Below are positions 7,759 through 43,438 of a stretch of 43,438 nucleotides of DNA, one piece after another. Location of the stretch: the IMG/VR virus record IMGVR_UViG_2703718829_000008, positions 1 through 43,438 of that record; one strand, 5' to 3'. The position numbers and the translations under genes were made by a program. Each line of letters opens with the position of its first letter. Within the stretch, counting starts at the first letter, position 1. Below the pieces are notes generated by a model. That model had not been told where the DNA came from. It ran no database searches and worked only from the letters and a program-made list of their open reading frames with translations. Origin of the DNA: a virus (Duplodnaviria; Heunggongvirae; Uroviricota; Caudoviricetes).

Positions 7759-7770
7759 CTACTCTCCATT

Positions 7771-7805: not shown

Positions 7806-7818
7806 TAAAAAGATTTAA

Positions 7819-8631: not shown

Positions 8632-9554
8632 TAATACAGATGAACAGAAGGCGGCAATTCTTTATTCTTAAGCCTTATCCATGCGGAAAGATTTGTTGGT
8701 CCGTCTGGCTCATTGATATCAACATCTCGTGTGTGGTTGATTAAAACGTCTCTCGCCGTTCCGATAACATACGAGAACTCATGGCCGTAGTCGTAGCACC
8801 TGCCAGAATAGTTTGATTGAATGTGCTTTAGCGCCGGATACAGTTCGCGGAATAATGCCTGTGAGCGGTTGGCATAATCCCATAACCATACAAGGCTGTT
8901 TGCTTCTTTTGCAGAAAGCTCGTTGGTTTTCTTCTCTTGTTTGCCGATGAACTCACCTTCAAGTGGAACTCGAGCTGCAAGTGACAGTGCTTCGGCAAAC
9001 TGCTCCTCACTGATTTCTTTGTATGAACACCCAAAATGAGATTTCAGTGACGACCACATGGTGATCATCGCCTTAGCCTGTTTTTCTTTTGGCAGAGACT
9101 GACCTCGACTCATGACGAGTTGTTTAATGGCTTCCTGCTGTTCAGTGGTGATTTTCCCCGGCAACGCCTTTTTAGCTTTGCGTGGATTAACCACATGGCC
9201 TTTAGTCCAGTACTCGTAGAGCACATCGTCACACTCTTCCTGATACTGGATTACCTTGTCGCGGATTTCAGGACGGACTTTGTTAGGACTGATGCTGTTC
9301 AACCAAGCTGCCAATTTTCGTAAAGCCATACAAATCATGGCTTGCACCCCACCGGCAGAAGGTATGGTGATTTCCACCATACCCTTCGAGAAGCGTTGAG
9401 AAATCTTCTTATGTTGAGATTTCCAATCTAGCCCCATTCCCTCAACGATAGGTTTCATTGGGGTGTACGGTTCGCCGTTGTGATTGACAACATAAAGCTC
9501 TGCGCCGTGGAATGGTACATTGATAGTTGATACCGCTGTTGCTATACTTTTCAT
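8631..9554 (-). CDS. Antirepressor-like protein (AntA-type N-terminal domain)
   Basis: 307 aa; lies downstream of an Arc-like gene and divergent from an Mnt-like gene, as in P22 immI. Confidence 0.55.
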   Translation of the reverse strand: MKSIATAVSTINVPFHGAELYVVNHNGEPYTPMKPIVEGMGLDWKSQHKKISQRFSKGMVEITIPSAGGVQAMICMALRKLAAWLNSISPNKVRPEIRDKVIQYQEECDDVLYEYWTKGHVVNPRKAKKALPGKITTEQQEAIKQLVMSRGQSLPKEKQAKAMITMWSSLKSHFGCSYKEISEEQFAEALSLAARVPLEGEFIGKQEKKTNELSAKEANSLVWLWDYANRSQALFRELYPALKHIQSNYSGRCYDYGHEFSYVIGTARDVLINHTRDVDINEPDGPTNLSAWIRLKNKELPPSVHLY

Positions 9555-9620
9555 GTCAGTTTTTCCTCAATACTTACTGGCGATTTAAGCCCTAGATACT
9601 CGCAATATCTGGGGCTTTAC

Positions 9621-9767
9621 TCATTCTGGACAAACAATCCCGTCCTTAGCTACCGACTCCTTAAGCCTCCTCAACACCTCATTGCTGAATGACCGATCAT
9701 CCTTTTTCGCTGACTGCTCCAAAGCTTTTTCGAGCCATTCTGGCATCCTTAACGTTTTTACTTTCAT
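9621..9767 (-). CDS. Arc-like ribbon-helix-helix repressor (48 aa, below track cutoff)
   Basis: Hand translation MKVKTLRMPEWLEKALEQSAKKDDRSFSNEVLRRLKESVAKDGIVCPE; SD AGGAGC 4 nt upstream of ATG. Confidence 0.5.
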   Translation of the reverse strand: MKVKTLRMPEWLEKALEQSAKKDDRSFSNEVLRRLKESVAKDGIVCPE

Positions 9768-9780
9768 TTTCGCTCCTTTG

Positions 9781-9836
9781 GTATGCGGTACGCATACATA
9801 GTATGTAGGTACGCATTGATAGTCAATAGATACCTA
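9781..9836. promoter_or_regulatory. Divergent promoter/operator region between arc-like and mnt-like genes
   Basis: Three palindromes: GTATGC-n5-GCATAC (9781-9797), TACATA-G-TATGTA (9795-9807), ATTGA-TAG-TCAAT (9815-9827). Confidence 0.4.
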
Positions 9837-9872
9837 CATATCCTGTGGTAAAAAATTATTCAGGATACGCTG

Positions 9873-10115
9873 ATGTCTGAACGCAGGTACAAGAACCCAC
9901 AAGTTAATCTTCGACTTCCTGTGGAGATAAAGGATCGCCTAACCGCGTTAGCTGAGGCGAATGGCAGATCTTTAAATGCAGAAATGGTTGCAGCTCTAAG
10001 TGCGTGGGCAGAAGAAAATAAACATGTTCACTCACTTAGCCTTTCTTCCTTAACCGAAAGATTAATAGCTCTTGAGAGAGAGGTTGCAGCCCTTAAAGAA
10101 GCAAACATCAAGTAA
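9873..10115 (+). CDS. Mnt/Arc-family ribbon-helix-helix repressor
   Basis: 80 aa; 'LTALAEANGRSLNAEMV' resembles P22 Mnt 'AEANGRSMNSEL'; divergent from arc/ant. Confidence 0.6.
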   Translation: MSERRYKNPQVNLRLPVEIKDRLTALAEANGRSLNAEMVAALSAWAEENKHVHSLSLSSLTERLIALEREVAALKEANIK

Positions 10116-10138
10116 GAAGACGATATTACGAGGTTGCT

Positions 10139-10606
10139 ATGGCATGTCTTAGCAAGGAAGAAAATGAAATCATCAATGTAGAATTTAAAAAAGCATCAGC
10201 AGATGAGTTGCTGATAATCAAGAAATTAATTATCGATGTTAAGAACCATAAAGGGCTATACCAAGATGTCGTAAAGAATGGCGCAGACCTCTACAGTTCA
10301 AAACTTGACATCATGAGAGAAACCGGCTTAGAGGAGATGACCTCCGGTATTCTTGCGAGAACGCTTTGGGGTATCACGCGACCAGAAAAAGAGAACACAA
10401 GACACCTAAGGGTCGGGATTAATGAAGCTGAGTGGTGCTTTGTGGAATGCATATGTAGACACCCCGCTCACCGCCTTCTTCATGGAAAGAAATACGCCAT
10501 CCGCAAAGGAATGAAGATTGGTTTTTTCAAACACATCCACCCTGGACAACTTGTAGGGTGTGGATGTTTATCTAGCCCCATAATTCCAGGATTAAAAAAC
10601 ACTTGA
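10139..10606 (+). CDS. Hypothetical protein co-transcribed with mnt-like repressor
   Basis: 155 aa, AT-rich, SD GAGG upstream, 24 bp after mnt-like stop. Confidence 0.4.
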   Translation: MACLSKEENEIINVEFKKASADELLIIKKLIIDVKNHKGLYQDVVKNGADLYSSKLDIMRETGLEEMTSGILARTLWGITRPEKENTRHLRVGINEAEWCFVECICRHPAHRLLHGKKYAIRKGMKIGFFKHIHPGQLVGCGCLSSPIIPGLKNT

Positions 10607-10965
10607 TAGCGGCCGCAAAGCAGATTGCCACGAAGTTGTTTGCAAAAATACTCCATGACAAGTTAGGACTTGAATAAGTGCTCATGCCGTGCTGATAGCT
10701 CTACTAGCAACTTCATCGCTTCTACCGCGTCTGCCGAGGTTGATTTAGGTGACGCAACAATGGACCTGAGTGTGCTCTATAAACTACACAGGGATAGAGA
10801 ATATGCCAAATTTAGCTTTATCACGGCGGCTAAGTCTGTTTCATCATGGTTTGCGAGTTTGTCTGCTTCTCCTGGGGTATACCCACTCGCAACCAATCGT
10901 GCGTGCATCATCTCTTTGTAAGAGTGTTCAATTGCTTTCATGATAATAACCTATTGGTAATAACT

Positions 10966-10995
10966 TAAAAAAACCCACCTGACGGTGGGTTTTAT
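10966..10995. terminator. Bidirectional rho-independent terminator
   Basis: A7-CCCACC-TGAC-GGTGGG-T tract between convergent genes. Confidence 0.55.
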
Positions 10996-11414
10996 TAGTG
11001 CTTGTATAGGTTGAACTCTCTATCAAGCCATATAACAAAAAATGTCGATCCAAGACGATAACCAACCATGGCTTTCAAATCATCAAATCTAAAAGCCAAG
11101 AAATGATCTACGTCTTCCGTTATATGACTGGGGATACCTGCTTTAATTGCACACCTTGCAATCTTCTCAAATCCAAGCTTATGCCTACCTTGCTGCTTAA
11201 TCTCTGCCCATGTTAGTTGACTTAATCTGTATAATTTATCAGCTAAGCCAGCTTTCTCATCTTTTTGGCATTTCGTTATGCAGTGAGAGCTTTGGATGTA
11301 ACAGAATGAAAATTTCGGTTTCTTTTGATCTGAATTCCCCCCTGACTGCGGCCCTAACTTTAACTTACCTGTAGATTCAGCAGGGGGGATAATCCTTTTA
11401 GATTTTCTTGCCAT
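10995..11414 (-). CDS. Putative toxin partner of Panacea-domain protein
   Basis: Start taken at MARKSKR, 4 nt after upstream stop; basic N-terminal region; C-terminus (VGYRLGSTFFVIWLDREFNLYKH) reminiscent of RelE/YoeB-type strands. Confidence 0.35.
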   Translation of the reverse strand: MARKSKRIIPPAESTGKLKLGPQSGGNSDQKKPKFSFCYIQSSHCITKCQKDEKAGLADKLYRLSQLTWAEIKQQGRHKLGFEKIARCAIKAGIPSHITEDVDHFLAFRFDDLKAMVGYRLGSTFFVIWLDREFNLYKH

Positions 11415-11418
11415 CTCG

Positions 11419-11868
11419 TTAGTTAATCCGAGTTGCAAAGTACTCTGCCATCTCCTTAGAGCTAATTTCAGAACCACCAACACCCTCAATATAGTTTGAT
11501 CTCCATGGTGACTCTTCGTGTGTCATGTTCCTCAGTTTCCAGGCAGAAAATTGCCCAAAAACATCCCAGACTTCTTCTAATAGCTCTAACTGTTCTTCGC
11601 TGAATTTTTCAGCATCAAAAGACTCTGGAGAAGGGATAGCGCCATTACCATATTGTTTATAACGGCGATAAAGCTCAGGAACAACAGGGCCATGCATCCA
11701 GGCTTCCATCTTATTCTGAAAAAGAGGCTCGCCAAGCAACGCCAATGAAAAACCCTGAGCATAGTAAACAAGCTTTTGTAATTTTAAATTAGAGATTGTG
11801 TCACCGCTATCCTCGTCACACCGCGACAGGAAGTAGTCGGCGACATCAAAACAAGTAAGCATGAACAC
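11419..11868 (-). CDS. Panacea-domain (DUF4065, SocA/GepA-like) protein, putative antitoxin
   Basis: 149 aa; 'NLKLQKLVYYAQGFSLALLGEPLF...EAWMHGPVVPELY' matches the DUF4065 pattern as I recall it. Confidence 0.6.
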   Translation of the reverse strand: MFMLTCFDVADYFLSRCDEDSGDTISNLKLQKLVYYAQGFSLALLGEPLFQNKMEAWMHGPVVPELYRRYKQYGNGAIPSPESFDAEKFSEEQLELLEEVWDVFGQFSAWKLRNMTHEESPWRSNYIEGVGGSEISSKEMAEYFATRIN

Positions 11869-12286
11869 ACCTCCATCTTGATAGCCACAGCTAAGTATCC
11901 AACTATGTCAAATGTCATTTAATACTATAACAAAGCTATCAGCAATCCTTCGGAGGCTAACTTACAACCACTTTAGCGACATGTTTAAACCATTACGTTT
12001 CACATTTACTGCATTTTCGCTGAAGTTACCTATAAGGTAATGTCACATTTCCTGCAAGTTTCATGCAATGTTGAAAAGTGAGCTATTCACTTTTCTATGA
12101 CACCAAACACCAAAAATAGCACTTTTTGCTAAATCATTCGTCCAAGTTGTGGATGGTTTGTCGTTGACACGTTTTCACACACCACTCCACCAATAAAGTA
12201 TCATCTGCTATCCTACGCAAAACTAACTGTTGCGTGTTTTTTCTTCATTTAATGGGTAATTGAAATAACCAATACGGATCTCTAAA

Positions 12287-12688
12287 ATGAACATCTTAAA
12301 ATCTACCATCTCAATCCTCTTTCTGCTAAGCCCTTCCGTGTGCTTCTCGTCTGGCGGCCTTACTTCACATCAAGTTTTAGTGGATTGCAACAGAGCTTCA
12401 TCGTCCTTGGTTAGCTCCTATGAAAAGGACGTTCCATTGCAGGAGTCCAAAAGGATGGACCTCATACAGACAATATCCCGCGTATGCCAAGGTGCATACC
12501 AAAACGCTTACGATGGCATGCAGTATGAGGACATTGAAAGAGAGGTTTTATCAAGCGCCAAAAAACAAAAGAAAAATCTTCAAGGAGAAAGCAAAAAAAA
12601 TACCGAGAACAGAACCGGGCTAGTTCTTTCCGCCATTCAGGTAGGGTATTACATATACCATAATGGCGGTCTTGATAATAAAAAATAA
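12287..12688 (+). CDS. Secreted hypothetical protein (signal peptide)
   Basis: 133 aa; hydrophobic N-terminus ISILFLLSPSVCFSSGG; AT-rich; preceded by a 418-bp AT-rich intergenic region. Confidence 0.4.
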   Translation: MNILKSTISILFLLSPSVCFSSGGLTSHQVLVDCNRASSSLVSSYEKDVPLQESKRMDLIQTISRVCQGAYQNAYDGMQYEDIEREVLSSAKKQKKNLQGESKKNTENRTGLVLSAIQVGYYIYHNGGLDNKK

Positions 12689-12708
12689 TCGTCATTATGA
12701 CATGATCG

Positions 12709-14526
12709 TTAAGGTGTTACACCACTAGAAAATGCCGCGTTTGTTGATACCCGGCTAACTTGCTGATTGACACTTCTGGTAAGAGCATCAACTGTTGTCG
12801 GGTTACTGTTAACAACTACCGTGCCAATAGTTGTACTGCTGCTACGGCTGTTGTCAATTTTTGATGTTGTCTGGCTTGGTGTTGAGGCGATGCGTTGCAG
12901 CTGCTGATAGTAAGCCAACGTCTCGTTTTCTTTTGCATTAAGAGCGGCGCGAATCTTTGGCACATATTCTCGCGTCTCTTTCGGTAAGGTGTTCCAGTAT
13001 TTGGATGATGGTGAATCAAACCCGGTACTGGATATATATTTTAACTTTTTGTCTACATTGCCCATCCCCCAGTTGTAAGCCATCAGCGCATGATTAACAT
13101 TGCCTTTATAGTGCTTTAGCAAATCCCTCATGAACCTTTCAGAAGCAGCGCGAGATTTTACCTCATCAAGACGCTCATCAATCCCATCACCGACCTTTAA
13201 CCCGTACGCTATGGCAGTATCCTTCATGAACTGATACGGACCAACAGCACCTTTCGGGCTGTAAAGTTTTTTACCACCACTCGATTCCACCTCACGAATG
13301 GCATCAAGAAGAGAATCCATGCTTACAGGCTTTACTCCGTCAGGGAGAGGGATATCTGGCTGAATGTTATTGCCATAAATCTCATCTCCCCTACGCCCAA
13401 AATCGGTGTCAAACCCCATGCTGCGCATGGTATCTCCAAGTTCACGCTTAGAGTAATCAAAAGATCCTTTAGCTGCACCCTCAATGTTTTCCCTGTCATT
13501 GTAGAGGTACAAACCATATGCTATTAACCCAGCCAACCATGGAGGAAGGGCGCCGCCTGTAAGTTTGCTTCCTACATATGCTGCTGCCAATAGCTTCAGA
13601 GCCTCTTCCGCGCCACCAACTGCCTTTGTGAATTGCTTCGTCATATTCCCGGCGTCATTGAAAAAGCCAATGATGTCGCCATGATGTTTCTCAATCCAGG
13701 AACCAAAAGCCTTCATTCCGTCAATAACGTCAGGAGCGAATGCCACGGCTAAATTTTGCTTTAATCGGGAAAACTCTGAATCAAGTTGCCCAAGAGTGGC
13801 AGCAACCTTCTCCTGCTCTTTTACCTGCTGTGCTGTAATACGGGATTTCTTTGTTTCTGAATCGACAAGCTGCTTAAGTTCCCCTGATTTTATTTTAGCG
13901 GCATCTGTCGGATCGAACCCTGCGGCAGCCATCACCTGCATCAGGTTTTCTTGAGAATGAGTCTTGCCATAGCGAGAAAACTCAGCAAGAGCCTTGTTTG
14001 GGTCGCCGAGCTTATTGATATCTAATCCGGTACGAGCGCCAAGAACCAGCAAATTTTGGGCAGCGCCAGTAAGCCCTCCCATAACAGTTGGATCGGCAAT
14101 ATTTGCCAAAGCCATTCTGGCATTCCCAGAAGATGAAATGAACGAGTCACCGTTAAGACCAGCCTGGCGAAATCCCCGCTGAACACCAAACATCTTATTA
14201 ACATCAGAACCGAAAAACTTGGCCTGTTGACTGGCTCTCACGATTTCGTTGGCAGTAGATGTAAAAAGTTGCTTGATTCCATACAACCCGGCGCCAATTC
14301 CCAAAAATCCAGCGGCTGCGGTTGTCACGTTGCGGAAAGCTGAAACAGCGGTTTTACCGAACCTCTCCGTTTCCTGCCGCTGTTTTTCAAGTTCCTTTAG
14401 CCTTTCCTTCTCAGCCCTGGAAAGATCTTTGTTTAATTTACTAACTTCATCTTTTACTTTCCGTTTTCCATTCAGGAATTCATCGGCCTTAATTGTGACC
14501 TTGTAGGCCAACTCATTGATAATCAT
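12709..14526 (-). CDS. Tail tape measure protein with lytic transglycosylase (SLT) domain
   Basis: 605 aa; coiled-coil N-terminus; 'EVESSGGKKLYSPKGAVGPYQFMKDTAIAYG' SLT-like motif; follows frameshifted chaperone pair. Confidence 0.55.
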   Translation of the reverse strand: MIINELAYKVTIKADEFLNGKRKVKDEVSKLNKDLSRAEKERLKELEKQRQETERFGKTAVSAFRNVTTAAAGFLGIGAGLYGIKQLFTSTANEIVRASQQAKFFGSDVNKMFGVQRGFRQAGLNGDSFISSSGNARMALANIADPTVMGGLTGAAQNLLVLGARTGLDINKLGDPNKALAEFSRYGKTHSQENLMQVMAAAGFDPTDAAKIKSGELKQLVDSETKKSRITAQQVKEQEKVAATLGQLDSEFSRLKQNLAVAFAPDVIDGMKAFGSWIEKHHGDIIGFFNDAGNMTKQFTKAVGGAEEALKLLAAAYVGSKLTGGALPPWLAGLIAYGLYLYNDRENIEGAAKGSFDYSKRELGDTMRSMGFDTDFGRRGDEIYGNNIQPDIPLPDGVKPVSMDSLLDAIREVESSGGKKLYSPKGAVGPYQFMKDTAIAYGLKVGDGIDERLDEVKSRAASERFMRDLLKHYKGNVNHALMAYNWGMGNVDKKLKYISSTGFDSPSSKYWNTLPKETREYVPKIRAALNAKENETLAYYQQLQRIASTPSQTTSKIDNSRSSSTTIGTVVVNSNPTTVDALTRSVNQQVSRVSTNAAFSSGVTP

Positions 14527-14741
14527 CGCTGCTCCTGATGTTTATTCCAGACCCGCTTGTTAAATGATTCCACCGAGATAATTTCCAGAAGGTTATACAT
14601 ATCACGAACAGATAACCGTTCCTGCAAATCGGTATAAGTGGCTTTTCCTGAACAGATAATGGCGTTCATTGATGGTGTGACGTTTACGGGGCTAACGAGT
14701 TTTGCCGGAAGAGTCTCCTCCTCCATGAACGGGTACTTCAC
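14523..14741 (-). CDS. Tail assembly chaperone -1 frame extension (T-like part of G/GT)
   Basis: ORF in -1 frame relative to upstream chaperone, starts GTG; reached from slippery site at 14756-14762. Confidence 0.45.
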   Translation of the reverse strand: MKYPFMEEETLPAKLVSPVNVTPSMNAIICSGKATYTDLQERLSVRDMYNLLEIISVESFNKRVWNKHQEQR

Positions 14742-15145
14742 TCTCCGGCGATCGTTAAAAAATCAAAATTGACTTTAAATACCTTATCCATTACCTGACG
14801 AATGGTTGATACCTCTTCAAAGTCGACAGGCTTCACGGTTCGCACCTGTCTGCTGCCTTCGTGTGTAATCACAATTTGCACAGTTGACATCAGGCGATCA
14901 CGAAGTTTTCTGGCGACTTCCGGCGATGCAGCAGAAATAACATTCAGACCAAGGGTGGCAAGGCCAGCGCACCCCATGGCAATAACATCAGCAGGAATAC
15001 CAGAGAATCCCGATTCCCCCATGGAGCGGAATAAATCCTGTGCCAGTTCGTCGGCATCCCATGCCGACATCTCTGTGATAATGAACTCCTTCCCATTGTC
15101 GCGATTATCGTCTTCCACGATAAAGGGGATTTCTTTACGTGCCAT
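14738..15145 (-). CDS. Tail assembly chaperone (G-like)
   Basis: 135 aa acidic protein between tube and tape measure. Confidence 0.5.
   Translation of the reverse strand: MARKEIPFIVEDDNRDNGKEFIITEMSAWDADELAQDLFRSMGESGFSGIPADVIAMGCAGLATLGLNVISAASPEVARKLRDRLMSTVQIVITHEGSRQVRTVKPVDFEEVSTIRQVMDKVFKVNFDFLTIAGE
14756..14762 (-). promoter_or_regulatory. Candidate programmed -1 ribosomal frameshift site (T_TTT_TTA)
   Basis: Heptamer lies 6 codons before the chaperone stop; -1 reading continues ...FFNDRRRVKYPFMEEE into the downstream ORF. Confidence 0.5.
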
Positions 15146-15579
15146 CAGATAGTGCTCCGTGTTACAGACTCAAAGTGAAATACTGCCGGGCGTGGTTGCA
15201 GTACGCGCCGACCCGGAGGAGTTGGAGTCCATGTATAAAGAACCCCGTTCACAAAATTCCACTTCGCGCCGAGAGCCGGAACTGTAAGCACCGCATTACA
15301 CTGAAACGCTGAAATTGCAGTTCTCTCCGCTGCATACCAGTCATCAATCAGCGAGCCAGCATTGGATGTGGGCATCAGGTTGATGGTGAACTCTGTCGGG
15401 TTAAAGATAAAACCAGCATGGTATTTACCGTCCGCTGACATCATGTCTTCTTTGTTCTGTAGTGCGCCAGTTTCAAACATGTTATCAGCTGCGTAGTCGT
15501 CAACATCAAAACCGCCAGGGTAGTAAGCGGGTACGACGATTCGCAGCTTACTGTTTGCCGAGGTGATATCTATAGGCAT
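15145..15579 (-). CDS. Tail tube protein
   Basis: 144 aa, immediately downstream of sheath-like gene. Confidence 0.4.
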   Translation of the reverse strand: MPIDITSANSKLRIVVPAYYPGGFDVDDYAADNMFETGALQNKEDMMSADGKYHAGFIFNPTEFTINLMPTSNAGSLIDDWYAAERTAISAFQCNAVLTVPALGAKWNFVNGVLYTWTPTPPGRRVLQPRPAVFHFESVTRSTI

Positions 15580-15590
15580 GATTTATTCCC

Positions 15591-17081
15591 TTATAAAATC
15601 GCGGTTGAGGACATTGTGATGGACTGGATTAACTGACCATCGACATAATAAAAAATGACACCTTTCAGATCGCGCTCAATGCGTGCAGAGCCTGACTGTG
15701 TCGGGATGTACAGGAACCAGCCCTGTGAATACAGCGTCGATGAGATATCTTTTCCAACTGTGTTATTCACAATTCTGGTTTGCGCATTATCAAGTTTCAC
15801 GCCACGCTGAATAGCCCCGAAATTGAGAGCCTGTTCAGCAACATCAATAACAGCAGCAGAAACTGCGCCGTATCCTGTCTCATTGAACGGGTAAGACTGG
15901 TTATTGGTGAACAGGTTGGCAAAAGCACTAACCAGATTGGCATTAATCCATACCTGATTAATAAAACTGTCCAGCCATACAAACTTGCCAGTAATGGCGC
16001 CATCAGATGCGTACTGCGCCATTGTTTTGTTCAGGCTGTATGAGCCGTAGAAGTTGTAACCGTTTGACTTCAGTGCCTGAGCGGTCGCCAGATCGCTTAC
16101 GTTGGGTGCTAACCCTGAAAATCCACGGAACTTGAACGAGATACGCCCATTGGTGCGTGCAAAATCCACGGATGCAGCATATGCCAGTGCTGTAACGCTA
16201 TACAGGTATGTTCCGTACACCGGAAAAATGTTCTCGTAGCCATTTGCCACAACCACTTTCTGCACAAAGCAATTGGCATTATTGGCTACCGTTCCTGCTG
16301 AAGTGGTGTCGTGAACAACATATCCAAACCGGTTTTTACTGCTGCTTGCCCATGCGCACAATTCTGTTTTCTGGTCATCGGCCAGTTCGACCAGCGAGTT
16401 AAACAGGATCCAGTTCTGGTTGACGTTGATGATGTTGTTCATCGTGTCTGTCAGAGTTACCGCATCAGAACCCGGTGATACAATCGCTGCGGAATCCTGC
16501 GTCAGTAATAACCCGGCAGCCAGAGCGCCAGCAGAGGCATAAGACACTTCACTCTCTGCGCCAGTAGTGGCAGAGCGAATGATGAATCGGTTAGCGATTG
16601 GCAACCATTCAACCACCACCTTGCTTGCACCAATTCCAACCTGCAACTTGGACGCAATGTCACTAAAACTTGTGGCTGTGGACAAATCAATTGATGTGCT
16701 GGTAGTCGACTCACCGTCAATGGAAAGGGTGATTGTTCCTGCTGGAATCGCTTTCAGTGTTGCCAGGGCAACACCTTTCAGGTTGCCGGACAGAAGATAC
16801 CCAGCCACTGGTGAAGTAACAATACGATACATCAGCAGTTCACCAGGAATAACGGATGAATTTTCGTATCCGTTAAAATACTGTTGTGCTGCGAGGAATT
16901 CTTTCGATTCACTCCCCATCAAAGCTGATACATCAGATGAGGAGTAATAAGATTGTACCGCGCCAACCGGGATAAGCTCGTTATCGGTCAACATCAGGCC
17001 GTTAGCATCAACCGCAGAACCGGCAGGCGTAACGACATTGGGCGTGATATTAAAATCTACAGATAAAGGGATTGTGCTCAT
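15591..17081 (-). CDS. Tail sheath protein
   Basis: 496 aa, size and synteny (sheath-tube-chaperone-tape measure). Confidence 0.45.
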   Translation of the reverse strand: MSTIPLSVDFNITPNVVTPAGSAVDANGLMLTDNELIPVGAVQSYYSSSDVSALMGSESKEFLAAQQYFNGYENSSVIPGELLMYRIVTSPVAGYLLSGNLKGVALATLKAIPAGTITLSIDGESTTSTSIDLSTATSFSDIASKLQVGIGASKVVVEWLPIANRFIIRSATTGAESEVSYASAGALAAGLLLTQDSAAIVSPGSDAVTLTDTMNNIINVNQNWILFNSLVELADDQKTELCAWASSSKNRFGYVVHDTTSAGTVANNANCFVQKVVVANGYENIFPVYGTYLYSVTALAYAASVDFARTNGRISFKFRGFSGLAPNVSDLATAQALKSNGYNFYGSYSLNKTMAQYASDGAITGKFVWLDSFINQVWINANLVSAFANLFTNNQSYPFNETGYGAVSAAVIDVAEQALNFGAIQRGVKLDNAQTRIVNNTVGKDISSTLYSQGWFLYIPTQSGSARIERDLKGVIFYYVDGQLIQSITMSSTAIL

Positions 17082-17593
17082 GGGCGGTTATCCACCTGTT
17101 CAGTTGAAATTTCTGCTTTGTCGAAATAGTCCTGCTGGAACGACACGGTGATGTGTGCTTGCAGGGAAAGAGTTAACGTGTAACGCTCCTGCCACTGACT
17201 CTCGGCGTTGATCATCGGCGCCTGAATGGCAGGAGATGAGTAAAGCGGTGCAAGCCGTGCATCAATAGCCTTGATGATGTCGTAGCCATATCCACTGGTG
17301 AATGTTGTTTCCAGTGCAATAGCTCTATCCCCTGCCCCCTGACCATAGATATCTACCTGAATATCAGCCTGGCGAACTTCCGTATATCCCATGGTGCTTG
17401 TGTCCGGAGAGCCGGTATCTTGTTTAAGCTCTCTCGTAGTGGATAGTCTGGTGAATCGCAAAGGAGTCAGGATACAGAACTGATCTTTGGGCATTGGTAC
17501 ACGGTTAGCCTGAGCCTGCAGGCATTTACCAGCGATAGGTTCTATGTAGCCAGCAAGTACATCGATAATATTATCGACAGTGAAATCATTCAT
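17078..17593 (-). CDS. Tail completion / head-tail joining protein
   Basis: Start at internal Met (ATGA overlap with upstream stop); track ORF extends to 17626. Confidence 0.3.
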   Translation of the reverse strand: MNDFTVDNIIDVLAGYIEPIAGKCLQAQANRVPMPKDQFCILTPLRFTRLSTTRELKQDTGSPDTSTMGYTEVRQADIQVDIYGQGAGDRAIALETTFTSGYGYDIIKAIDARLAPLYSSPAIQAPMINAESQWQERYTLTLSLQAHITVSFQQDYFDKAEISTEQVDNRP

Positions 17594-17967
17594 GGGCTTA
17601 CCTGCAATACAGCAACCAGTCGGCACCAGTCAGGCCACAACTCTATTGGCTCAACAACAAGCCATTGTTCCCCGTTAATCACGAAGATATCTCCGCCCTG
17701 CTCCAGTTCTCGCTGAACACTGAAGTAATTACCATTGACGTAAATCACTTTTGCCAGCCCCTGAATATTCAGTCCATCGACGTGTTGCATGTCGCCGCGA
17801 CTGATTGGCTGTAGTTGAATGGTAACGTTCTGGTCAGGGAGATAAGACGGAATCGGCTTGCGACCGGGGCCGATAGTTTCACCTGCATACTTTTTCAGGA
17901 TTGCCGGGATGTTGGGGTTAATGCTTGTGATCGCGTTATTGGCTATCTGTCGAAGATTCAATTTCAC
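17590..17967 (-). CDS. Head-tail joining protein
   Basis: 125 aa, synteny. Confidence 0.3.
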   Translation of the reverse strand: MKLNLRQIANNAITSINPNIPAILKKYAGETIGPGRKPIPSYLPDQNVTIQLQPISRGDMQHVDGLNIQGLAKVIYVNGNYFSVQRELEQGGDIFVINGEQWLVVEPIELWPDWCRLVAVLQVSP

Positions 17968-18502
17968 CTACCTCATAATCAACAGCCCTTAACATGTCCC
18001 CGGTCCATATGAGAGGCTTGTTGTTGCTCATATCAACATCAACCTTTTTCACCGGACCGAAATAGCCCGGACCACCAAAAACATCTTCTCTGGCCTTCAC
18101 TACATCCCACTTAGTCATTTCCGCCCTGTTATTAGGGAATCTACTTCTTAGAAGTACTGTTACCGGGCTTAATGGCGGCTCTTGAATAGTTCGAATGGAT
18201 TCCTGAATGTCTGCTTTTATGATCTCGCCGATAAGATTCAGAACAGTATCCGTATCTCCGTCATGCGATTTCATGAGCTTTTCGACCTTTTCTGACCACT
18301 CTTCAGATTTAGAAGCTATAGCATTCCTGAAGAATGGCCTTGGCGGACTTCCACTTGCCGGGTTACCAAATTCGTTAGATGCTGCAACCATTGGCATAGA
18401 AGTACCATCCGGATAGGTGGCATCTTCAAGAAACCCGACCTTCAATTGCTTTGAGGACAACTCACTACCAACTGAATCAAGGAACTCCATCACCTTATCC
18501 AT
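17936..18502 (-). CDS. Head-tail joining / neck protein
   Basis: 188 aa, synteny. Confidence 0.3.
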   Translation of the reverse strand: MDKVMEFLDSVGSELSSKQLKVGFLEDATYPDGTSMPMVAASNEFGNPASGSPPRPFFRNAIASKSEEWSEKVEKLMKSHDGDTDTVLNLIGEIIKADIQESIRTIQEPPLSPVTVLLRSRFPNNRAEMTKWDVVKAREDVFGGPGYFGPVKKVDVDMSNNKPLIWTGDMLRAVDYEVGEIESSTDSQ

Positions 18503-18933
18503 CAGTACCTCCGGTAATACCCATACGGGTAATTTGATGGAGAATGCCCGCTTATATACTGGAAGGTGCGAAACGGCGCCGTAGCATTCCAGTAATCAGC
18601 CCCGTACTTTGTTTGCATGTACCATGCTGAATTTGCTGTTCCCCCTGGCATATCGGCATGAACGCTAACTGAACCCTCTGAAGCACTGTCGATTCTTCCA
18701 ACCAATCCGGATGGAGACTGCCCATTCGCTCCTGAATACAAACAGGCGATATGGGCAACCAGCATATTCAGCAGCATTGAGCGTACAGCCAAATCCGACA
18801 CACGACTTGAGTCTGTGTTATCGAGATAAATGGTTGCTTGCGTGAAATACTGCTGAAGAAGTGCGTCGTCGACAGATGATAATTCAGGATAGCGTAGCTT
18901 AAATGCGGAGGGGTCAAATATTACGACGCCCAT
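18502..18933 (-). CDS. Head completion / connector protein
   Basis: 143 aa, synteny. Confidence 0.3.
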
Positions 18934-18945
18934 TTGCTGCTCCCG

Positions 18946-19293
18946 CTATTTTTCGTCAGCCTTTTTTACGCCCGGAGCCGGATTTTCCGGGTCAAGGCCT
19001 TCAAGGCCAGTTTTTGATTCTTTCAGATCTTTACCCTGCGCATTCAGACTGCGAATATCTTTCTGAATGAAGATTGCATTGTTCTGAATATACGCGGCAT
19101 CCTTATAGGTCTCGATGAACTTATCCATGAAGTCTTTCTCGACCATGGTAACTCCGAAAGCCCCCTCAGGAATTGCACCATCAAGACCACGGAGGGCGGT
19201 TGTTGCCGCCCCGTTCAGGATTACTGTTTTGCCATCCAGAGTTACCTGAAGGCCATTTGGCAATTTGCAGCCAACGCTTACCGTTTCTGCCAT
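18946..19293 (-). CDS. Hypothetical head protein
   Basis: 115 aa downstream of major capsid gene. Confidence 0.3.
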   Translation of the reverse strand: MAETVSVGCKLPNGLQVTLDGKTVILNGAATTALRGLDGAIPEGAFGVTMVEKDFMDKFIETYKDAAYIQNNAIFIQKDIRSLNAQGKDLKESKTGLEGLDPENPAPGVKKADEK

Positions 19294-19296
19294 GAA

Positions 19297-20337
19297 TTAA
19301 ACTCCCAACATGCTTGCAAATGCCAGCGGCTGGCGAATGATTGCGCCCCAGGTGCCACCGGTTTTCTTTTGTTTGTACGCGGACAGGTCAACAACAACTG
19401 GATGCGCACGCATTTTTTCGGTAAATGCGCAGTAGCCGGTGTCCTGACCATCCAAATCGTCGGCGATCAGCTGAACCAGTTCGCCGGATTCGGTTTTGTA
19501 CTCGACAGCAGTAACAACGCGCAGGTTCGGGAAGTTTTTCTTCAGCTGATCAGACACGTTGACGTTGTACATGTTGGTCTTGGTCAGATTTGCTTCTGAC
19601 TCTGGACTCATCGCCAGCGTCATCTTGCTGTCTCGCTCAACGTACCCCTTGGTCTGCTTCACTAACTGCATGTAAAGCGCCTGGATATCGTCATACACCG
19701 CCTGACCATCTTTGGTTGCCCAGGTAGTTCCGCTGCCAGTACCCGTTGCGCCCGGGGTGATTGATGCCGGAAGGTTAGGGTCATTCAGAATGCCGTAGTT
19801 CTTCAGGCCAGCAACGCCGAAGAAGTAGGACTTGTTCTGAAACTTATTCAGGGTCAGCGCAGAAGCAGTATTCAGTTGTTGTGCCCATGCAATGCGGCCT
19901 TCACCGTAACGGTCAAGTTCCAGCTCCCCCCACTGAGTAATGGTCTGGTACAGATAGGACTCACGAGCAACCCAGTTGACGTTTGCATTTACCTGCCCAT
20001 TATTGTTGTAGTCACCATAACTGGAAACCTGACCCGTTGATTCCACAACCGGGAATTGTGCGGTCATGGTGGTCCAGTCTCCCTTCTTCGTTTCCCCCAG
20101 AATTTCCACCGCTTTCATCGGAGTGACAAGGATGCGAATCAGTTCCGGGTCAACGTAATTAGTGAAGTACCATGGAATGCCAGAGTTACTGGTTGTTACC
20201 AGTGAAGGCTGAGAGTCCATTGCATAGGAATAGCTATTAGCAACAGCATCCGTCAGATAGGCTTTGGCTTCCGGAAGGATTACACCGTAATCTCGCTCAG
20301 CCATAGCTTTATGTTGTAAAAATTCTGCGTTATTCAT
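19297..20337 (-). CDS. Major capsid protein
   Basis: 346 aa, position after protease/scaffold and small structural protein. Confidence 0.55.
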
Positions 20338-36448: not shown

Positions 36449-37156
36449 ATGGTTCAGAATGAAAAAGTGCGCAAAGAATTCGCCCAGCGGCTAGCGCAAG
36501 CCTGTAAAGAAGCTGGTCTTGATGAACATGGTAGGGGGATGGCCATAGCCCGTGCCCTTTCTCTTTCGTCCAAAGGCGTTAGCAAATGGTTTAATGCTGA
36601 GTCTTTACCGCGTCAGGAAAAAATGAATGCGCTTGCGAAATTTCTAAACGTTGATGTTGTTTGGCTTCAGCACGGCACTTCGTTAAATGGAGCGAATGAT
36701 GAAGATACTCTTTCATTTGTTGGCAAATTAAAAAAAGGGTTAGTGCGCGTGGTTGGTGAGGCAATTCTTGGTGTTGATGGTGCCATCGAGATGACCGAAG
36801 AGCGCGATGGGTGGCTCAAAATTTATAGCGATGATCCAGATGCCTTTGGTCTTCGTGTGAAAGGAGACAGCATGTGGCCCAGAATAAAATCAGGAGAATA
36901 TGTACTCATTGAGCCTAACACCAAAGTATTCCCGGGTGATGAGGTGTTTGTCAGAACCGTTGAAGGACACAACATGATTAAGGTTCTTGGCTATGACAGA
37001 GATGGAGAATACCAGTTTACAAGCATCAACCAGGACCACAGACCAATAACGTTGCCTTATCATCAAGTAGCAAAGGTGGAGTATGTGGCTGGTATTCTGA
37101 AGCAGTCCCGCCATCTGGATGACATCGAGGCAAGGGAGTGGCTGAGAGATTCCTGA
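36449..37156 (+). CDS. cI: CI-type repressor (HTH + S24 LexA-like autopeptidase domain)
   Basis: 235 aa; N-terminal HTH, C-terminal 'RVKGDSMWPRIKSGEYVLIEP' S24 peptidase motif. Confidence 0.85.
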   Translation: MVQNEKVRKEFAQRLAQACKEAGLDEHGRGMAIARALSLSSKGVSKWFNAESLPRQEKMNALAKFLNVDVVWLQHGTSLNGANDEDTLSFVGKLKKGLVRVVGEAILGVDGAIEMTEERDGWLKIYSDDPDAFGLRVKGDSMWPRIKSGEYVLIEPNTKVFPGDEVFVRTVEGHNMIKVLGYDRDGEYQFTSINQDHRPITLPYHQVAKVEYVAGILKQSRHLDDIEAREWLRDS

Positions 37157-37262: not shown

Positions 37263-37640
37263 ATGAGCGATAAAGAGTTTAAAGTACTTGATTTTGATGA
37301 TTTTGCTCATTATTTGAGCACGTTGAACGGCGAACAAATTTGTCCAATGTGTATGGAAGAATCATGGACGCTTTTCGCCCCAAACAAGCTTCCTCCAGAA
37401 GACGAGGATAGGTATGTAATAAGTTCTATCCCAGGATCACTTATTTCAAGTAAAAAACCTGAAAAATCAAATCTCTTCTTCAGAAGTTACAACAACGATG
37501 TCCTCCTGATGCAATGCAGAAATTGTGGATACATGGCATTTTTTAATTATAAAAAAGTCCAAGAAAACCTTGAATCAGGGGATTATATAAAAAAAGAAGA
37601 TATAGATATGGTGGATGAAAATGACAAATCAGAAGACTGA
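37263..37640 (+). CDS. Hypothetical Zn-ribbon protein in the rexA slot
   Basis: 125 aa; CPMC...CRNC Cys4; acidic C-terminus; AT-rich; same strand as cI. Confidence 0.5.
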   Translation: MSDKEFKVLDFDDFAHYLSTLNGEQICPMCMEESWTLFAPNKLPPEDEDRYVISSIPGSLISSKKPEKSNLFFRSYNNDVLLMQCRNCGYMAFFNYKKVQENLESGDYIKKEDIDMVDENDKSED

Positions 37641-38100
37641 TTTCTTCCGTCCAATGGAGTATGATAATAACTATGAGCAATTTGGTGTTATAGAAGCACA
37701 CAGGAATGGTCGTTCTACTCCGTCATATCAGCCAGGCACCATTGGTAAGGATATCCCGGTTATTATTGCGCATAAGTTAAGCGATCAACCAGCAGGGGGT
37801 GAGCCACAGATGAGCGTAAAATCACTGTCACGTTGGGAGTTTTGGCTAGGGATTTTCACTGCCATTATTGGGATATTTTCCATTGTTGTAGGAGCAACGT
37901 GGACAATTTCTAATAATATCAATGATAAGATTAATGCATCAAGACAAGAGCTAACTGGGAACATCCAATCCAGTCGAGCAGAAATCACGGCAAGAATTGA
38001 CAGGCTCGAAGATAAGATGGAGTCTAATTTCAAAGAAACATCATCGAATCTGTTCAAAATACAGGCAATTCTAGAAGCAAAATCCGACAAAGAAAAATAA
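37615..38100 (+). CDS. Hypothetical single-pass membrane protein with C-terminal coiled coil in the rexB slot
   Basis: 161 aa (alternative ATG at 37621 with SD GGTGGA); TM helix WEFWLGIFTAIIGIFSIVVGATWTI; overlaps upstream gene. Confidence 0.5.
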   Translation: MKMTNQKTDFFRPMEYDNNYEQFGVIEAHRNGRSTPSYQPGTIGKDIPVIIAHKLSDQPAGGEPQMSVKSLSRWEFWLGIFTAIIGIFSIVVGATWTISNNINDKINASRQELTGNIQSSRAEITARIDRLEDKMESNFKETSSNLFKIQAILEAKSDKEK

Positions 38101-38441: not shown

Positions 38442-38560
38442 AAACAGATACCAAACGAGATGGGTTTGGCGGTGATGTGAATTGCAGCTGCAACGACAGC
38501 AACCAGAAGACCAGCATCTGGCGCATCACCACCAAAGCCATTTCACATGAGGAAAACATC

Positions 38561-38896
38561 ATGACGGTAATCGTGTACGGAAAATCAACATTTGCAGGAA
38601 ATGCCAAAACTCGCCGTCATGAGCGGCGCAGAAAGCTGGCTATTGAGCGTGATGCTATCTGTAACATCATCGATTCGATCTTCGGCACAGACAGTGAGGA
38701 ACCTGTTCAGGAAGCCCCGAGAAAACGTTTAAGCCTTTCTGAAAAAGCAATATCACTCGGAAGCCTTCGCTGCAAGAAGGCAGAAGAAGTCGAGCGTAAA
38801 CAGAACCGTATTTACTACCGCAAGCCACGCAGCGAAATGGGTGTGACTTGTGTTGGTCGCCAGAAAATGAAATTAGGCAGCAAACCACTTATTTGA
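38561..38896 (+). CDS. N: N-type transcription antiterminator
   Basis: Start at ATG with SD GAGGA; Arg-rich motif KTRRHERRRK; C-terminus 'YYRKPRSEMGVTCVGRQKMKLGSKPLI' resembles lambda N. Confidence 0.75.
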   Translation: MTVIVYGKSTFAGNAKTRRHERRRKLAIERDAICNIIDSIFGTDSEEPVQEAPRKRLSLSEKAISLGSLRCKKAEEVERKQNRIYYRKPRSEMGVTCVGRQKMKLGSKPLI

Positions 38897-38974: not shown

Positions 38975-39154
38975 ATGACTACGACTATTGATACAAATCA
39001 ATGGTGTGGACAATTCAAGCGATGCAATGGATGCAAACTGCAATCGGAATGCATGGTTAAGCCTGAAGAAATGCTTCCTGTAATGGAGGATGGGAAATAT
39101 GTCGATAAATGGGCAATACGAACGACGGCAATGATTGCCAGAGAACTTGGTTAA
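38975..39154 (+). CDS. ral: Ral-like restriction alleviation protein (59 aa, below track cutoff)
   Basis: Hand translation MTTTIDTNQWCGQFKRCNGCKLQSECMVKPEEMLPVMEDGKYVDKWAIRTTAMIARELG matches lambda Ral as I recall it. Confidence 0.55.
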   Translation: MTTTIDTNQWCGQFKRCNGCKLQSECMVKPEEMLPVMEDGKYVDKWAIRTTAMIARELG

Positions 39155-39798: not shown

Positions 39799-40434
39799 TT
39801 GGGCCGTGTCCATTCTGAGAACAATCATATGAGCAAAGAATTTTACGCAAGACTGGCAGCTATTCAGGAGAATCTGAACGCGCCAAAGAATCAGTACAAC
39901 TCATTCGGTAAATATAAATACAGAAGCTGCGAAGACATTCTTGAAGGCGTTAAGCCGTTACTGAATGGCCTGTTTTTATCAATCAGCGATGAAGTTGTGT
40001 TGATTGGTGATCGGTATTACGTGAAAGCCACGGCAACTATTACCGATGGCGAAAACAGTCATACGGCAACCGCCCTTGCACGAGAGGAAGAAAGCAAGAA
40101 AGGAATGGATTCTGCACAAGTTACGGGAGCTACAAGCTCTTATGCACGCAAGTATTGCCTCAATGGTTTGTTCGGCATTGATGATGCGAAAGATGCAGAT
40201 ACCGACGAGCATAAACATCAGCAGAACGCAGCAGCAAAGCAATCAAAACTATCACCTACACCTGAACAGGTTCTAAAAGCATTCACTGACGCAGCATTGC
40301 AGAAAAACACCGTGGAAGAGCTTAAACAGGCGTTCGCCAAAGCGTGGAAGATGCTCGAAGGCACACCGGAGCAGCACAAAGCGCAGGACGTTTACAACAT
40401 CAGACGAGACGAATTAGAAGGAGCTGCTGCTTAA
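39799..40434 (+). CDS. erf: Erf-family single-strand annealing recombinase (probable true start at 39829)
   Basis: 'MSKEFYARLAAIQENLNAPKNQYNSFGKYKYRSCEDILEGVKPLL' matches P22 Erf as I recall it. Confidence 0.7.
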   Translation: MGRVHSENNHMSKEFYARLAAIQENLNAPKNQYNSFGKYKYRSCEDILEGVKPLLNGLFLSISDEVVLIGDRYYVKATATITDGENSHTATALAREEESKKGMDSAQVTGATSSYARKYCLNGLFGIDDAKDADTDEHKHQQNAAAKQSKLSPTPEQVLKAFTDAALQKNTVEELKQAFAKAWKMLEGTPEQHKAQDVYNIRRDELEGAAA

Positions 40435-40817
40435 TGGCACATTCGATTACTGTAAGACTAAACAAGCCCGCAAGAGAGTTTCAGGCCGGGGAAAATATCG
40501 GATTCAACATCCGTGCTGGCGTTCAGTATTACGATCGCCAGACAAAAAAGAAAGAATGGACAAACTACAGCGCCGTTGTATTTGCCAAGCCAGGAGCGCA
40601 AGCGGATTACTACCGTAGCGTTCTTGTTGAAGGTGGCATTGTGGAAATTACCGGAGAAAACATCAGGGTTGATGTTTATCAGGGGCAAAATGGTCAATCA
40701 ATTACTCTTGAATTACTGAATGCAAAGATTGGATTTACAGCTTCAGGAAATGGCCCGCAGCAGCAAAGTAGTAACCAGCAGAACACTCCTGTATACGACG
40801 ATTCCATCCCATTCTGA
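40434..40817 (+). CDS. Short SSB-like OB-fold protein with SSB C-terminal tail motif
   Basis: 127 aa; ends ...PVYDDSIPF (compare E. coli SSB ...DFDDDIPF); TAATG overlap with erf stop. Confidence 0.45.
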   Translation: MAHSITVRLNKPAREFQAGENIGFNIRAGVQYYDRQTKKKEWTNYSAVVFAKPGAQADYYRSVLVEGGIVEITGENIRVDVYQGQNGQSITLELLNAKIGFTASGNGPQQQSSNQQNTPVYDDSIPF

Positions 40818-41602: not shown

Positions 41603-41732
41603 CTGGACATGCAACGATCCTCGACATGTGCTGTGGCAGCCGCATGTTCTGGTTAGATAAGAATGACGAACGGGCGAGATAAGCGATCGGTTAAGTGCTA
41701 TAGTAATGCGCTTTTGTATTTATGGAGTGAAT

Positions 41733-42431
41733 ATGAAAAATATCCTACTGGCATCATTGTTAGTGGCATCGCCGGGTGCATTTGCAGCCAGCTTTGACTG
41801 CCAAAAGGCTTCGACAGCAATCGAACATAAAATCTGCGATAACGAACGTCTGTCAAAATTAGACGAACAGCTTAGCTCTGCCTATTCTAGTGCCCTCAAA
41901 GAAAACCCAGAGAACGCAGACACCCTAAAAATAGTTCAACGTCAGTGGGTAAATATGCGTGGAAAACTCACTGATAATAAGGCTCTGGAGCTGGCTTATC
42001 TTATCCAAATTAATGGCCTCAAAGGTTTGGGGAGTTCAGTCAGCGTAACAGCGGCCAATGAGATACCCACGTCGACGCAGAAACATTCTGAAGAGCAGGA
42101 AGAAACAAGTAAGGCAGAAGTTAAGTCGGTCAAGAACGGCAATAAGCTAACCTTAGAGTCATTCCGAGCTAAATATGTAGAAGTAGATGGTGAGTATTAC
42201 AGCACGACATCCATTCCTAGAGGCAGTTCGTTCTTGTTCACTTGCGCCAGTCGTATTGCTGATGACCAAGTGAATGTTTGGAAGAAACATGCAGCCAAAG
42301 AGGGCAAAATCGACCTATTCTTTGAGGTTGAGAATCACTTACACACTGCTATGTTGAACGCCAATTTCCAGAAGTTGAATTCAGACCCTGCCAAAAGAGG
42401 TATTTGTAATCTGATTAACGCAGTGCCGTAA
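41733..42431 (+). CDS. Secreted DUF1311 (LprI lysozyme-inhibitor-like) domain protein
   Basis: Signal peptide MKNILLASLLVASPGAFA; 'FDCQKASTAIEHKICDNERLSKLDEQLSSAY' DUF1311-like motif; SD GGAG. Confidence 0.5.
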   Translation: MKNILLASLLVASPGAFAASFDCQKASTAIEHKICDNERLSKLDEQLSSAYSSALKENPENADTLKIVQRQWVNMRGKLTDNKALELAYLIQINGLKGLGSSVSVTAANEIPTSTQKHSEEQEETSKAEVKSVKNGNKLTLESFRAKYVEVDGEYYSTTSIPRGSSFLFTCASRIADDQVNVWKKHAAKEGKIDLFFEVENHLHTAMLNANFQKLNSDPAKRGICNLINAVP

Positions 42432-42637
42432 GTAAATTTAGGGCCACAGTTGTGGCCTTAAATATTTTTTCAGCCTTTTCTTATTTGTAATAAGCAGTAC
42501 TTAGTAGTGCTTATAAAACAGAATAAAAAACATATGACTTTGGCGATTACCCAGTAAAGATATTCGAAATAAATGTAAATATCGGCAATGAATAACAATC
42601 CTCGCACTCGCGGGGATTTCTTTTATATGGGGATAAT

Positions 42638-43438
42638 ATGACCATCCACTTTCACGGCAGCCCAATATGGGGTGATGAGCATGCCCCTACAGATATGCTG
42701 ATTAAAGCCCTTTACCGTGATGGTGGGGCTTTTGTTTCATTTGCCAGACCAGAGCAGATGAAAAAGATTGCCATGTTCCCTTGTGATATACGCCTTGATA
42801 ACGGTGCTTTTAGCGACTGGATGAAAGCATTAAAGAAAGGCACTCCGGTAGACTGGAGTAAGAGACGAGCAAAATTCTACGACTTTGTTGGGAAGTGGTT
42901 CAGCAGAATTGAATGGTTTCTTATACCTGACGTTATCGAAGGGACAGAGGCAGAAAACGACGAGCAGATTGAGTTGGTTCCTGATTGGCTAAAATCAAAA
43001 GCGGTTCCGGTCTGGCATACCGACGAATCAATTGAACGTCTTTTACGCCTTTCTGGCAAATTTGAATGGGTGGCGATTGGATGCTGCGGCCCACACAGGC
43101 ACATACGCTCTAAATGGTGGGAACAGAGAATGGATGAAGTTTTTACTGAGATTTATATCAATCGTAATTTGAAAGTGAAAATTCATGGTCTTCGAATGCT
43201 CGACGTGAGAGTTCTTGGTATGTATCCGTTCGCCAGTGCGGATTCTACTAATGTTGCTGTTAACGTACCGAAGACAGAGAAGCGATTTCCTGAGATTACC
43301 GACAAACTGGCACGTACAGCTGTACTTCGCGCAGCTATTGAAAAGGTGCACCCACCATCGATATCAGCATGGGTAGACAGAAAGATGAGAGAGCCGGCGC
43401 AAGCCGGTTTTTTATTTGAATTCACCGACGCCGCTTAA
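42638..43438 (+). CDS. Hypothetical protein (266 aa) at distal end of the early-left operon
   Basis: Complete ORF ending TAA at window end; Cys/His cluster 'IGCCGPHRH'; no family recognised. Confidence 0.4.
   Translation: MTIHFHGSPIWGDEHAPTDMLIKALYRDGGAFVSFARPEQMKKIAMFPCDIRLDNGAFSDWMKALKKGTPVDWSKRRAKFYDFVGKWFSRIEWFLIPDVIEGTEAENDEQIELVPDWLKSKAVPVWHTDESIERLLRLSGKFEWVAIGCCGPHRHIRSKWWEQRMDEVFTEIYINRNLKVKIHGLRMLDVRVLGMYPFASADSTNVAVNVPKTEKRFPEITDKLARTAVLRAAIEKVHPPSISAWVDRKMREPAQAGFLFEFTDAA

Follow-up and report, generated by a model that had tools for sequence, protein, structure and literature searches.

Enzymes of the DpdA family swap guanines in phage DNA for 7-deazaguanine bases and so evade restriction. 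Modifying DNA with 7-deazaguanines is well established as a counter-defence of phages and has been studied best in virulent phages that carry the whole precursor pathway. Here we describe a DpdA-like gene that closes a 43,438-nt stretch of caudoviricete DNA (IMG/VR virus record IMGVR_UViG_2703718829_000008, positions 1 to 43,438; "the window" means this whole stretch). Its 266-amino-acid product is 98.5% identical to gp29 of coliphage HK106 (YP_007151699), with 98.6% identity at the nucleotide level and homology beginning 47 nt 5' of the ATG. RefSeq annotates the HK106 protein as a queuine tRNA-ribosyltransferase, and Hutinet et al. 2019 (Nat Commun, PMC6884629) place it, in their Supplementary Data 1, among phages encoding DpdA alone. 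This "dpdA-only" group is the largest of the 2019 census, in which singleton DpdAs form similarity-network clusters of their own, namely of Mycobacterium phages and of gamma-Proteobacteria phages (PMC6884629). As the gene described here shows, the group includes ordinary lambdoid prophages. An earlier note, made from the sequence alone, had been unable to place the protein in a family; it can be placed, and it is of an already known kind, being essentially the HK106 allele catalogued in 2019. What is modestly new is a VUT-DpdA(-Dam) cassette in lambdoid prophages and an altered substrate loop.

Gene, family and predicted active site

Reading the letters confirmed that the open reading frame (ORF) is complete, from the ATG at 42638 to a TAA at 43436-43438 on the + strand, the stop codon being the final three bases of the window. 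The start context, which had been called reasonable, contains a Shine-Dalgarno-like GGGGA 5 nt 5' of the ATG.

42638..43438, + strand: DNA-guanine transglycosylase-like ORF of the DpdA family (phage singleton clade), 266 amino acids
42629-42633, + strand: Shine-Dalgarno-like GGGGA, read directly from the sequence

The homolog search returned 2,230 homologous protein clusters, dN/dS was 0.04-0.13 against orthologs at 76-98% amino-acid identity (with synonymous sites near saturation), and the N-terminus is conserved from residue 4 on in an alignment of 31 sequences that represents the query family throughout this study. From these data we conclude that the ORF is a real, constrained gene and more than a chance reading frame.

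We assign the protein to the DpdA family of phages, where it represents the "dpdA-only" (singleton) form. Over residues 1-265 it matches phrog_887, "queuine tRNA-ribosyltransferase", in the PHROGs database (E=1.2e-102), which is also matched by the validated DpdA of Escherichia phage CAjan (E=8.2e-96), a protein that has no Pfam hit, as is the case for the query. Profile-profile comparison of the query family with CAjan DpdA gave a probability of 94.8%, and hhalign against a DpdA1 profile gave 96% (E=3.7e-9) over 150 columns from beta3 to beta8, this profile being shallow because the CAjan-seeded homolog search yielded only relatives of at least 68% identity. The predicted fold is a (beta/alpha)8 TIM barrel most similar to structures of tRNA-guanine transglycosylases (TGTs) and DpdA, with a DNA-acting DpdA as the top structural match. 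The earlier guess of a nucleotide-modifying enzyme, with its pointer to queuosine/preQ0, therefore led to the right family, the DpdA/TGT transglycosylase superfamily, and no homology to an Ea-type protein of unrelated function was found.

Several other searches were less telling. Single-sequence searches of Pfam, NCBIfam and the PDB with the query gave no match, Foldseek against the PDB retrieved only generic TIM barrels (DHDPS, PdxJ) and was not discriminating, and searching the PDB with three profiles (query family, DpdA1 and both merged) gave only chance-level matches, such as a spindle pole body component and Cas10. Pfam searches of all 31 family members at E<=10 produced only stray weak matches, for example to TatD, and none of the 31 matched the TGT family (PF01702). 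Because of this, and because the protein has 266 amino acids compared to 370-580 in TGTs, it does not belong among the tRNA-guanine transglycosylases as Pfam defines them, despite the RefSeq name. Nor is it part of the bacterial Dpd restriction-modification system, since PADLOC gave no match, including to its DpdA defence model, and the gene is flanked by xis, int and genes of a phage PL operon. We also considered and ruled out a Cap10-like role in CBASS, there being no CD-NTase/QueC-like partner and the sequence affinity being to phage DpdA.

The active site was predicted by comparison with bacterial DpdA, in which D95 is the general acid/base, F99 stacks, and D130 (after beta4) and H181 recognize the base, H181 contacting its Watson-Crick edge; the substrate loop consists of G206-G207, and the nucleophile D256 lies at the end of beta8, the D95A and D256A variants being inactive (PMC10164549). 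Besides the query-family alignment, we used a second one merged with DpdA1. Invariant among the 31 sequences are D54, F58, D98, H127, G148, G151, H183, R186, D189 and D202-S203, and invariant across the query family and DpdA1 are D54, A57, F58, G102, P124, H127, G148, H183, P197 and D202-S203. D54 and F58 (LDNGAF) align with D63 and F67 of DpdA1 (LDSGAF), at the same i, i+4 spacing as D95 and F99 of bacterial DpdA, while H127 aligns with H132 and D202-S203 with D206-S207 of DpdA1. Since the PADLOC model of bacterial DpdA aligns, at its positions 200-259, with residues 147-209 of CAjan DpdA (E=1.3e-3), CAjan G153-G154 would be equivalent to G206-G207 and CAjan D206 to D256. By this transitive mapping, query G148 and D202 probably correspond to the substrate loop and the nucleophile of the bacterial enzyme. 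D98 (IPDV) is invariant in the query family, yet it is offset by 3 residues from the invariant D105 of DpdA1 in both hhalign and MAFFT, which pair D105 with the non-conserved E101 instead. Taken together, the predicted catalytic residues appear to be intact in the query.

42797-42799, + strand: predicted catalytic codon D54
42929-42931, + strand: predicted catalytic codon D98
43016-43018, + strand: predicted catalytic codon H127
43079-43081, + strand: predicted catalytic codon G148
43241-43246, + strand: predicted catalytic codons D202-S203
+ strand: other predicted catalytic codons, F58 and H183-G-L185
43079..43102, + strand: codons G148-C-C-G-P-H-R-H155, putative beta6-alpha6 loop, placed by alignment with DpdA1 and transitively to bacterial DpdA

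The earlier note had also pointed out a Cys/His cluster. Residues 143-155 (nt 43064-43102) do contain the motif, EWVAIGCCGPHRH, but the cluster lacks conservation and does not form a metal site. In this stretch, G148 and G151 alone are invariant; homologs differ at C149 and C150 (GLCG, GSSG, GMCG, GCMG) and also at H153 and H155. Judging from the alignments, the stretch probably represents the beta6-alpha6 loop, aligning with GG(M/L)VG of DpdA1 and transitively with G206-G207 of bacterial DpdA. In TGT/DpdA enzymes, this loop contacts the 7-substituent of the deazaguanine (PMC10164549). The loop of the query family differs from that of DpdA1, reading G-[CLMS]-x-G: the first Gly of the DpdA1 pair aligns with the invariant G148, and the second is replaced by C, L, M or S. 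In the query, no Cys follows residue 150, and a conserved Cys/His cluster that could form a structural Zn2+ site after beta8 is missing. The validated CAjan DpdA1 likewise lacks the Cys cluster of this site, which is why the Zn site does not define phage DpdAs.

The PL operon and the relatives of the locus

The gene had been placed in the accessory part of a PL operon, and this holds: genes for a cI-like repressor, N, Ral, Erf, Abc2, DUF5405, DUF2737 and an LprI-family protein all lie upstream on the + strand. Terminator-like hairpins were located by a sequence scan and then folded as RNA against shuffled sequences.

36449..37156, + strand: cI-like repressor (HTH and Peptidase_S24; Pfam PF00717, PF01381), which sets the PL side of the immunity region
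38477..38896, + strand: N-type transcription antiterminator (Pfam PF25694 N_peptide, E=3.6e-26), same leftward operon
38975..39154, + strand: Ral antirestriction protein (Pfam PF11058 Ral, E=1.9e-43), same operon
42436..42463, + strand: strong terminator-like hairpin with U-run closing the LprI-family gene, -17.6 kcal/mol, z -4.8
42597..42618, + strand: terminator-like hairpin with U-run 20 nt 5' of the ATG, -13.1 kcal/mol, z -3.5
43388..43413, + strand: terminator-like hairpin with U-run inside the last ~17 codons of the ORF, -17.9 kcal/mol, z -5.8

None of 200 shuffles was as stable as the hairpin at 42597-42618, which lies within the segment common to HK106 (homology from 42591), and the sequence scan found no promoter-like site between the upstream hairpins and the ATG. 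Given the bracketing hairpins, this lack of a promoter-like site and the N gene in the operon, the DpdA-like ORF would be expressed from N-antiterminated PL transcripts after infection or induction, with N probably needed for reading through the hairpins. The third hairpin codes for a disordered tail (EPAQAGFLF), residues 256-266 of the product having a pLDDT <50 in the structure model, and several homologs have comparable "AGF" tails, so a conserved RNA or transcription signal may have produced the C-terminal peptide as a by-product.

Directly 5' of the DpdA-like gene, the LprI-family gene (41706-42431, + strand; 241 amino acids; the N-terminus resembles a signal peptide, and Pfam recognises an LprI lysozyme inhibitor domain at E=1.7e-5) and its terminator look like a self-contained moron. 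The AT-rich spacer between this terminator and the DpdA-like gene holds an imperfect 10-bp inverted repeat, AAGCAGTACT-T-AGTAGTGCTT, at ~42492-42512 of the window. A mosaic boundary lies close to it, homology to phage ev099 and Stx phages ending near 42629 and that to HK106 starting at 42591.

It had been suggested that pathway partners such as queuosine/preQ0 genes might follow beyond the window. The prophages that match the window tail at 98.4-99.9% identity offered a view of this region, and they show two small ORFs, an excisionase, an integrase and host DNA instead. A circular genome, with the acyltransferase gene at 1-1083 as the downstream partner, was rejected on the same observation. 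Within the window, tblastn with CAjan FolE, QueD, QueE, QueC and YhhQ and with two other VUT proteins found nothing. We further probed 80 IMG/VR and 75 bacterial-genome loci of relatives, and in 0 of these 155 loci was a preQ0 synthesis gene (folE, queD, queE, queC, gat-queC) located within 6 kb; a QueF, DpdC or amidotransferase-like partner was seen neither in the window nor in the related loci. The absence of preQ0 genes places the ORF in the recognised "dpdA-only" group and not outside the family.

A possible precursor transporter does recur next to the relatives. A YhhQ/VUT gene (PF02592) ends at or overlaps the start codon of the DpdA-like gene in 21 of the 80 viral loci, comprising 20 of the 24 loci L040-L063 (56-87% identity) and L082, and it is found just 3' of the homolog in four distant lineages (Bacteroidota, Planctomycetota, Saccharibacteria and Acidimicrobiales). 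In E. coli, YhhQ is the preQ0 transporter (PMC5372724). In one protein cluster (P0006, 460 amino acids, 42 member sequences; loci L007-L009, 6001-7383, and also L040 and L048), a DpdA-like protein 76% identical to the query is fused in frame to a Dam-type N6-adenine DNA methylase. An overlapping Vut_1 gene precedes the fusion gene, and together they make up a DNA-modification cassette with three functions; the P22-like prophages that carry it lie integrated beside fliE. Another exact homolog sits after a Lar restriction-alleviation gene, and distant relatives adjoin VUT (phage Phleasolo) or QueD (Caulobacter phage DMCA). None of the loci at least 98% identical to the query (HK106 type) has a VUT gene, and homology of the window to the VUT-bearing cassettes starts exactly at the ATG, so that the window allele is a bare enzyme module. 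For the same reason, and because tblastn came back empty, a remnant VUT gene upstream in the window was rejected.

The gene is present in 82 of 5,426 complete E. coli genomes (~1.5%), always on the chromosome and labelled "hypothetical protein" by PGAP, and the bacterial-genome loci show that the family reaches many bacterial phyla. The practical result is a correction of annotation, together with close relatives that travel with a precursor transporter and a Dam methylase. We found no experimental work on this clade in the literature on HK106 and deazaguanine or on DpdA in temperate phages and lysogens.

The rest of the window was also surveyed. Among 50,697 phage records, none is closely related to its structural half (1-20000), the best match being a Vibrio phage with 16% coverage at 70% identity; the element therefore combines a lambdoid early region with an unusual virion module, which includes a DUF2612 protein. 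The sole patch in this half that matches P22-like phages at ~98% is an ant/mnt/arc immI-like one (8640-12226). An Acyl_transf_3 acyltransferase gene, O-antigen acetylase-like (1-1083, + strand), begins at base 1, and the stop codon of the DpdA-like gene ends at the last base; judging from this, the window is part of a prophage that was cut off at gene boundaries, which leaves xis, int and att outside. Between the cI-like repressor and N, a position that lambda uses for rexAB, lie two overlapping + strand ORFs (37263-37640, 125 amino acids; 37615-38100, 161 amino acids with a hydrophobic segment), neither with a match in Pfam or PADLOC, which may be an uncharacterised prophage-expressed exclusion pair. 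Between Erf and Abc2, a 157-amino-acid ORF (40344-40817, + strand) without a Pfam match takes the place that an SSB gene has in the related prophages L010 and L011.

Proposed function and alternatives

We favour, with a probability of roughly 60%, the reading that the gene encodes a lone DpdA which puts a preQ0-type base into phage DNA as an anti-restriction measure. The hairpin-bracketed gene lies distally in the N-antiterminated PL operon, with xis and int right behind it, and would be expressed after infection or induction and silent in the repressed lysogen. At some sequence motif in the double-stranded DNA of the phage, the enzyme would flip out a guanine, whereupon D202 would attack C1' to yield a covalently joined enzyme-DNA intermediate, with D54 as general acid/base and F58 stacking on the base, roles that are suggested by the conserved residues and the mechanism of bacterial DpdA. 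A free 7-deazaguanine base, most likely preQ0, would then take the place of guanine. Since the phage has no preQ0 synthesis genes, this base would be supplied by the E. coli FolE-QueD-QueE-QueC pathway or by uptake via host YhhQ. Partial modification of the progeny DNA could thus protect against restriction beside Ral, as a second anti-restriction function in the operon. The substrate, target motif, modification level and biological pay-off given here are what we infer for the query enzyme. That a lone DpdA is workable in E. coli has been shown for relatives: the 9g enzyme expressed alone produced 790 dPreQ0 per 10^6 nt in plasmids, and CAjan delta-queC keeps 3.5 dPreQ0 per 10^3 nt from host-made preQ0 (PMC7544227).

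Among the alternatives, the same DNA base exchange with another incoming base (preQ1, queuine or another salvaged 7-deazapurine, maybe converted, for example to dADG) survives best, although we consider it unlikely. Its appeal lies in the loop expected to read the 7-substituent, which is G-[CLMS]-x-G and not GG(M/L)VG as in DpdA1, and in several precedents: DpdA2 of Vibrio phage VH7D inserts host preQ1 in E. coli, dADG and not dPreQ0 was found in phage 7-11, and YhhQ-family proteins carry preQ0, with some homologs shifted towards queuine (PMC5372724, PMC11570991). However, every DpdA1 tested so far inserts preQ0, we have no sequence rule for reading specificity from the loop, and no QueF, DpdC or amidotransferase-like partner was seen nearby.

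A broader form of this idea, which we regard as rather unlikely, is that the lambdoid/enterobacterial singleton clade is a salvage-dependent module whose altered loop accepts a base other than preQ0 (preQ1, queuine or a gut-derived 7-deazapurine), or alternatively an enzyme redirected to non-self DNA. The ancestral form of such a module could be a VUT transporter plus DpdA, sometimes with Dam. If true, temperate coliphage DNA would gain a sparse, environment-dependent 7-deazaguanine mark that has not yet been described.

That the protein is a diverged DpdA-like enzyme which leaves the phage's own DNA unmodified, with an exclusion or host-takeover function, seems very unlikely to us. It might excise or exchange 7-deazaguanines in superinfecting Queuovirinae genomes or serve as a glycosylase of host DNA, and base exchange of the TGT type is reversible in principle. 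The gene does share the accessory "moron" part of the operon with host-interaction genes (LprI, Abc2, Ral), and singleton clusters have been flagged as possibly diverged. Nevertheless, expression in the lysogen is not expected without a promoter-like site between the upstream terminators and the ATG, no PADLOC defence model is matched, the recurring coupling to a precursor importer argues for the need of an incoming free base, and the Dam fusion points to modification of self DNA.

It is highly improbable that the enzyme is an analogue of tRNA-guanine transglycosylases that alters queuosine-family modification of host or phage tRNA. The RefSeq name suggests as much, but it is an automatic transfer; apart from the missing Pfam match in all 31 members, the Zn subdomain and the extra TGT/ArcTGT domains are absent from this 266-residue protein without a Cys cluster after beta8, and DNA is the substrate of both the best structural match and the nearest validated relatives. 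The idea of a metal-dependent Cys/His enzyme from a family that is otherwise unknown is practically untenable: the GCCGPHRH motif exists, but its Cys and His residues vary across homologs, by which the alignment refutes it, and fold and profile matches put the protein in the DpdA family.

Comparison with known systems

Bacterial DpdA from the Dpd restriction-modification system of Salmonella Montevideo (PDB 7UI4) has 413 residues and 15% identity to the query. It carries insertions Ins1-3 and a large Ins8 with a structural Zn site and needs the DpdB ATPase, whereas the query has none of these.

The DpdA1 proteins of Escherichia phages CAjan and 9g are validated DNA preQ0 transglycosylases, belong to the same PHROG 887 and align with the query family at a probability of 96% in hhalign. 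Both groups share the DxGAF, xPxxH, HG(L/F) and DS(S/T) motifs, and both are without the Zn Cys cluster and without a Pfam TGT match. However, identity is only ~18-19%, and DpdA1 has ~45 extra N-terminal residues and a longer C-terminal region. Moreover, the gene for DpdA1 stands within a folE-queD-yhhQ-queC-queE cluster, and the enzyme modifies 25-32% of G, whereas the query has no such cluster.

The singleton DpdA gp032 of Salmonella phage 7-11 is 58% identical over 89% of the query and, like the gene of the window, is a lone dpdA without precursor genes in a phage whose enterobacterial host makes preQ0. The virion DNA of 7-11 contained dADG at ~50 per 10^6 nt, a trace of ~0.02% of G, and not dPreQ0. 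Unlike the window, 7-11 is a virulent 90-kb phage, and its gene stands among nucleotide-metabolism and ligase genes and not in a lambdoid PL operon.

The VUT-DpdA(-Dam) cassettes of P22-like and lambdoid prophages (P0006 on L007-L009; IMG/VR L040-L063) are 56-87% identical and occupy the same distal-PL site by int. They differ in the PF02592 Vut_1 gene that overlaps the start codon and in the sometimes fused or adjacent Dam, neither of which accompanies the window allele.

The nearest described counterpart remains HK106. Its structural genes are unrelated to those of the window and the upstream neighbours differ, being DUF4752 and gp30 in HK106 and the LprI-family gene in the window. In both phages, however, a small ORF, xis and int follow the DpdA-like gene, which occupies the distal end of the PL operon, and preQ0 genes are missing. 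HK106 grows on E. coli K-12, for which que and yhhQ mutants are available, so that the activity of a lone DpdA is directly testable in a simple system.
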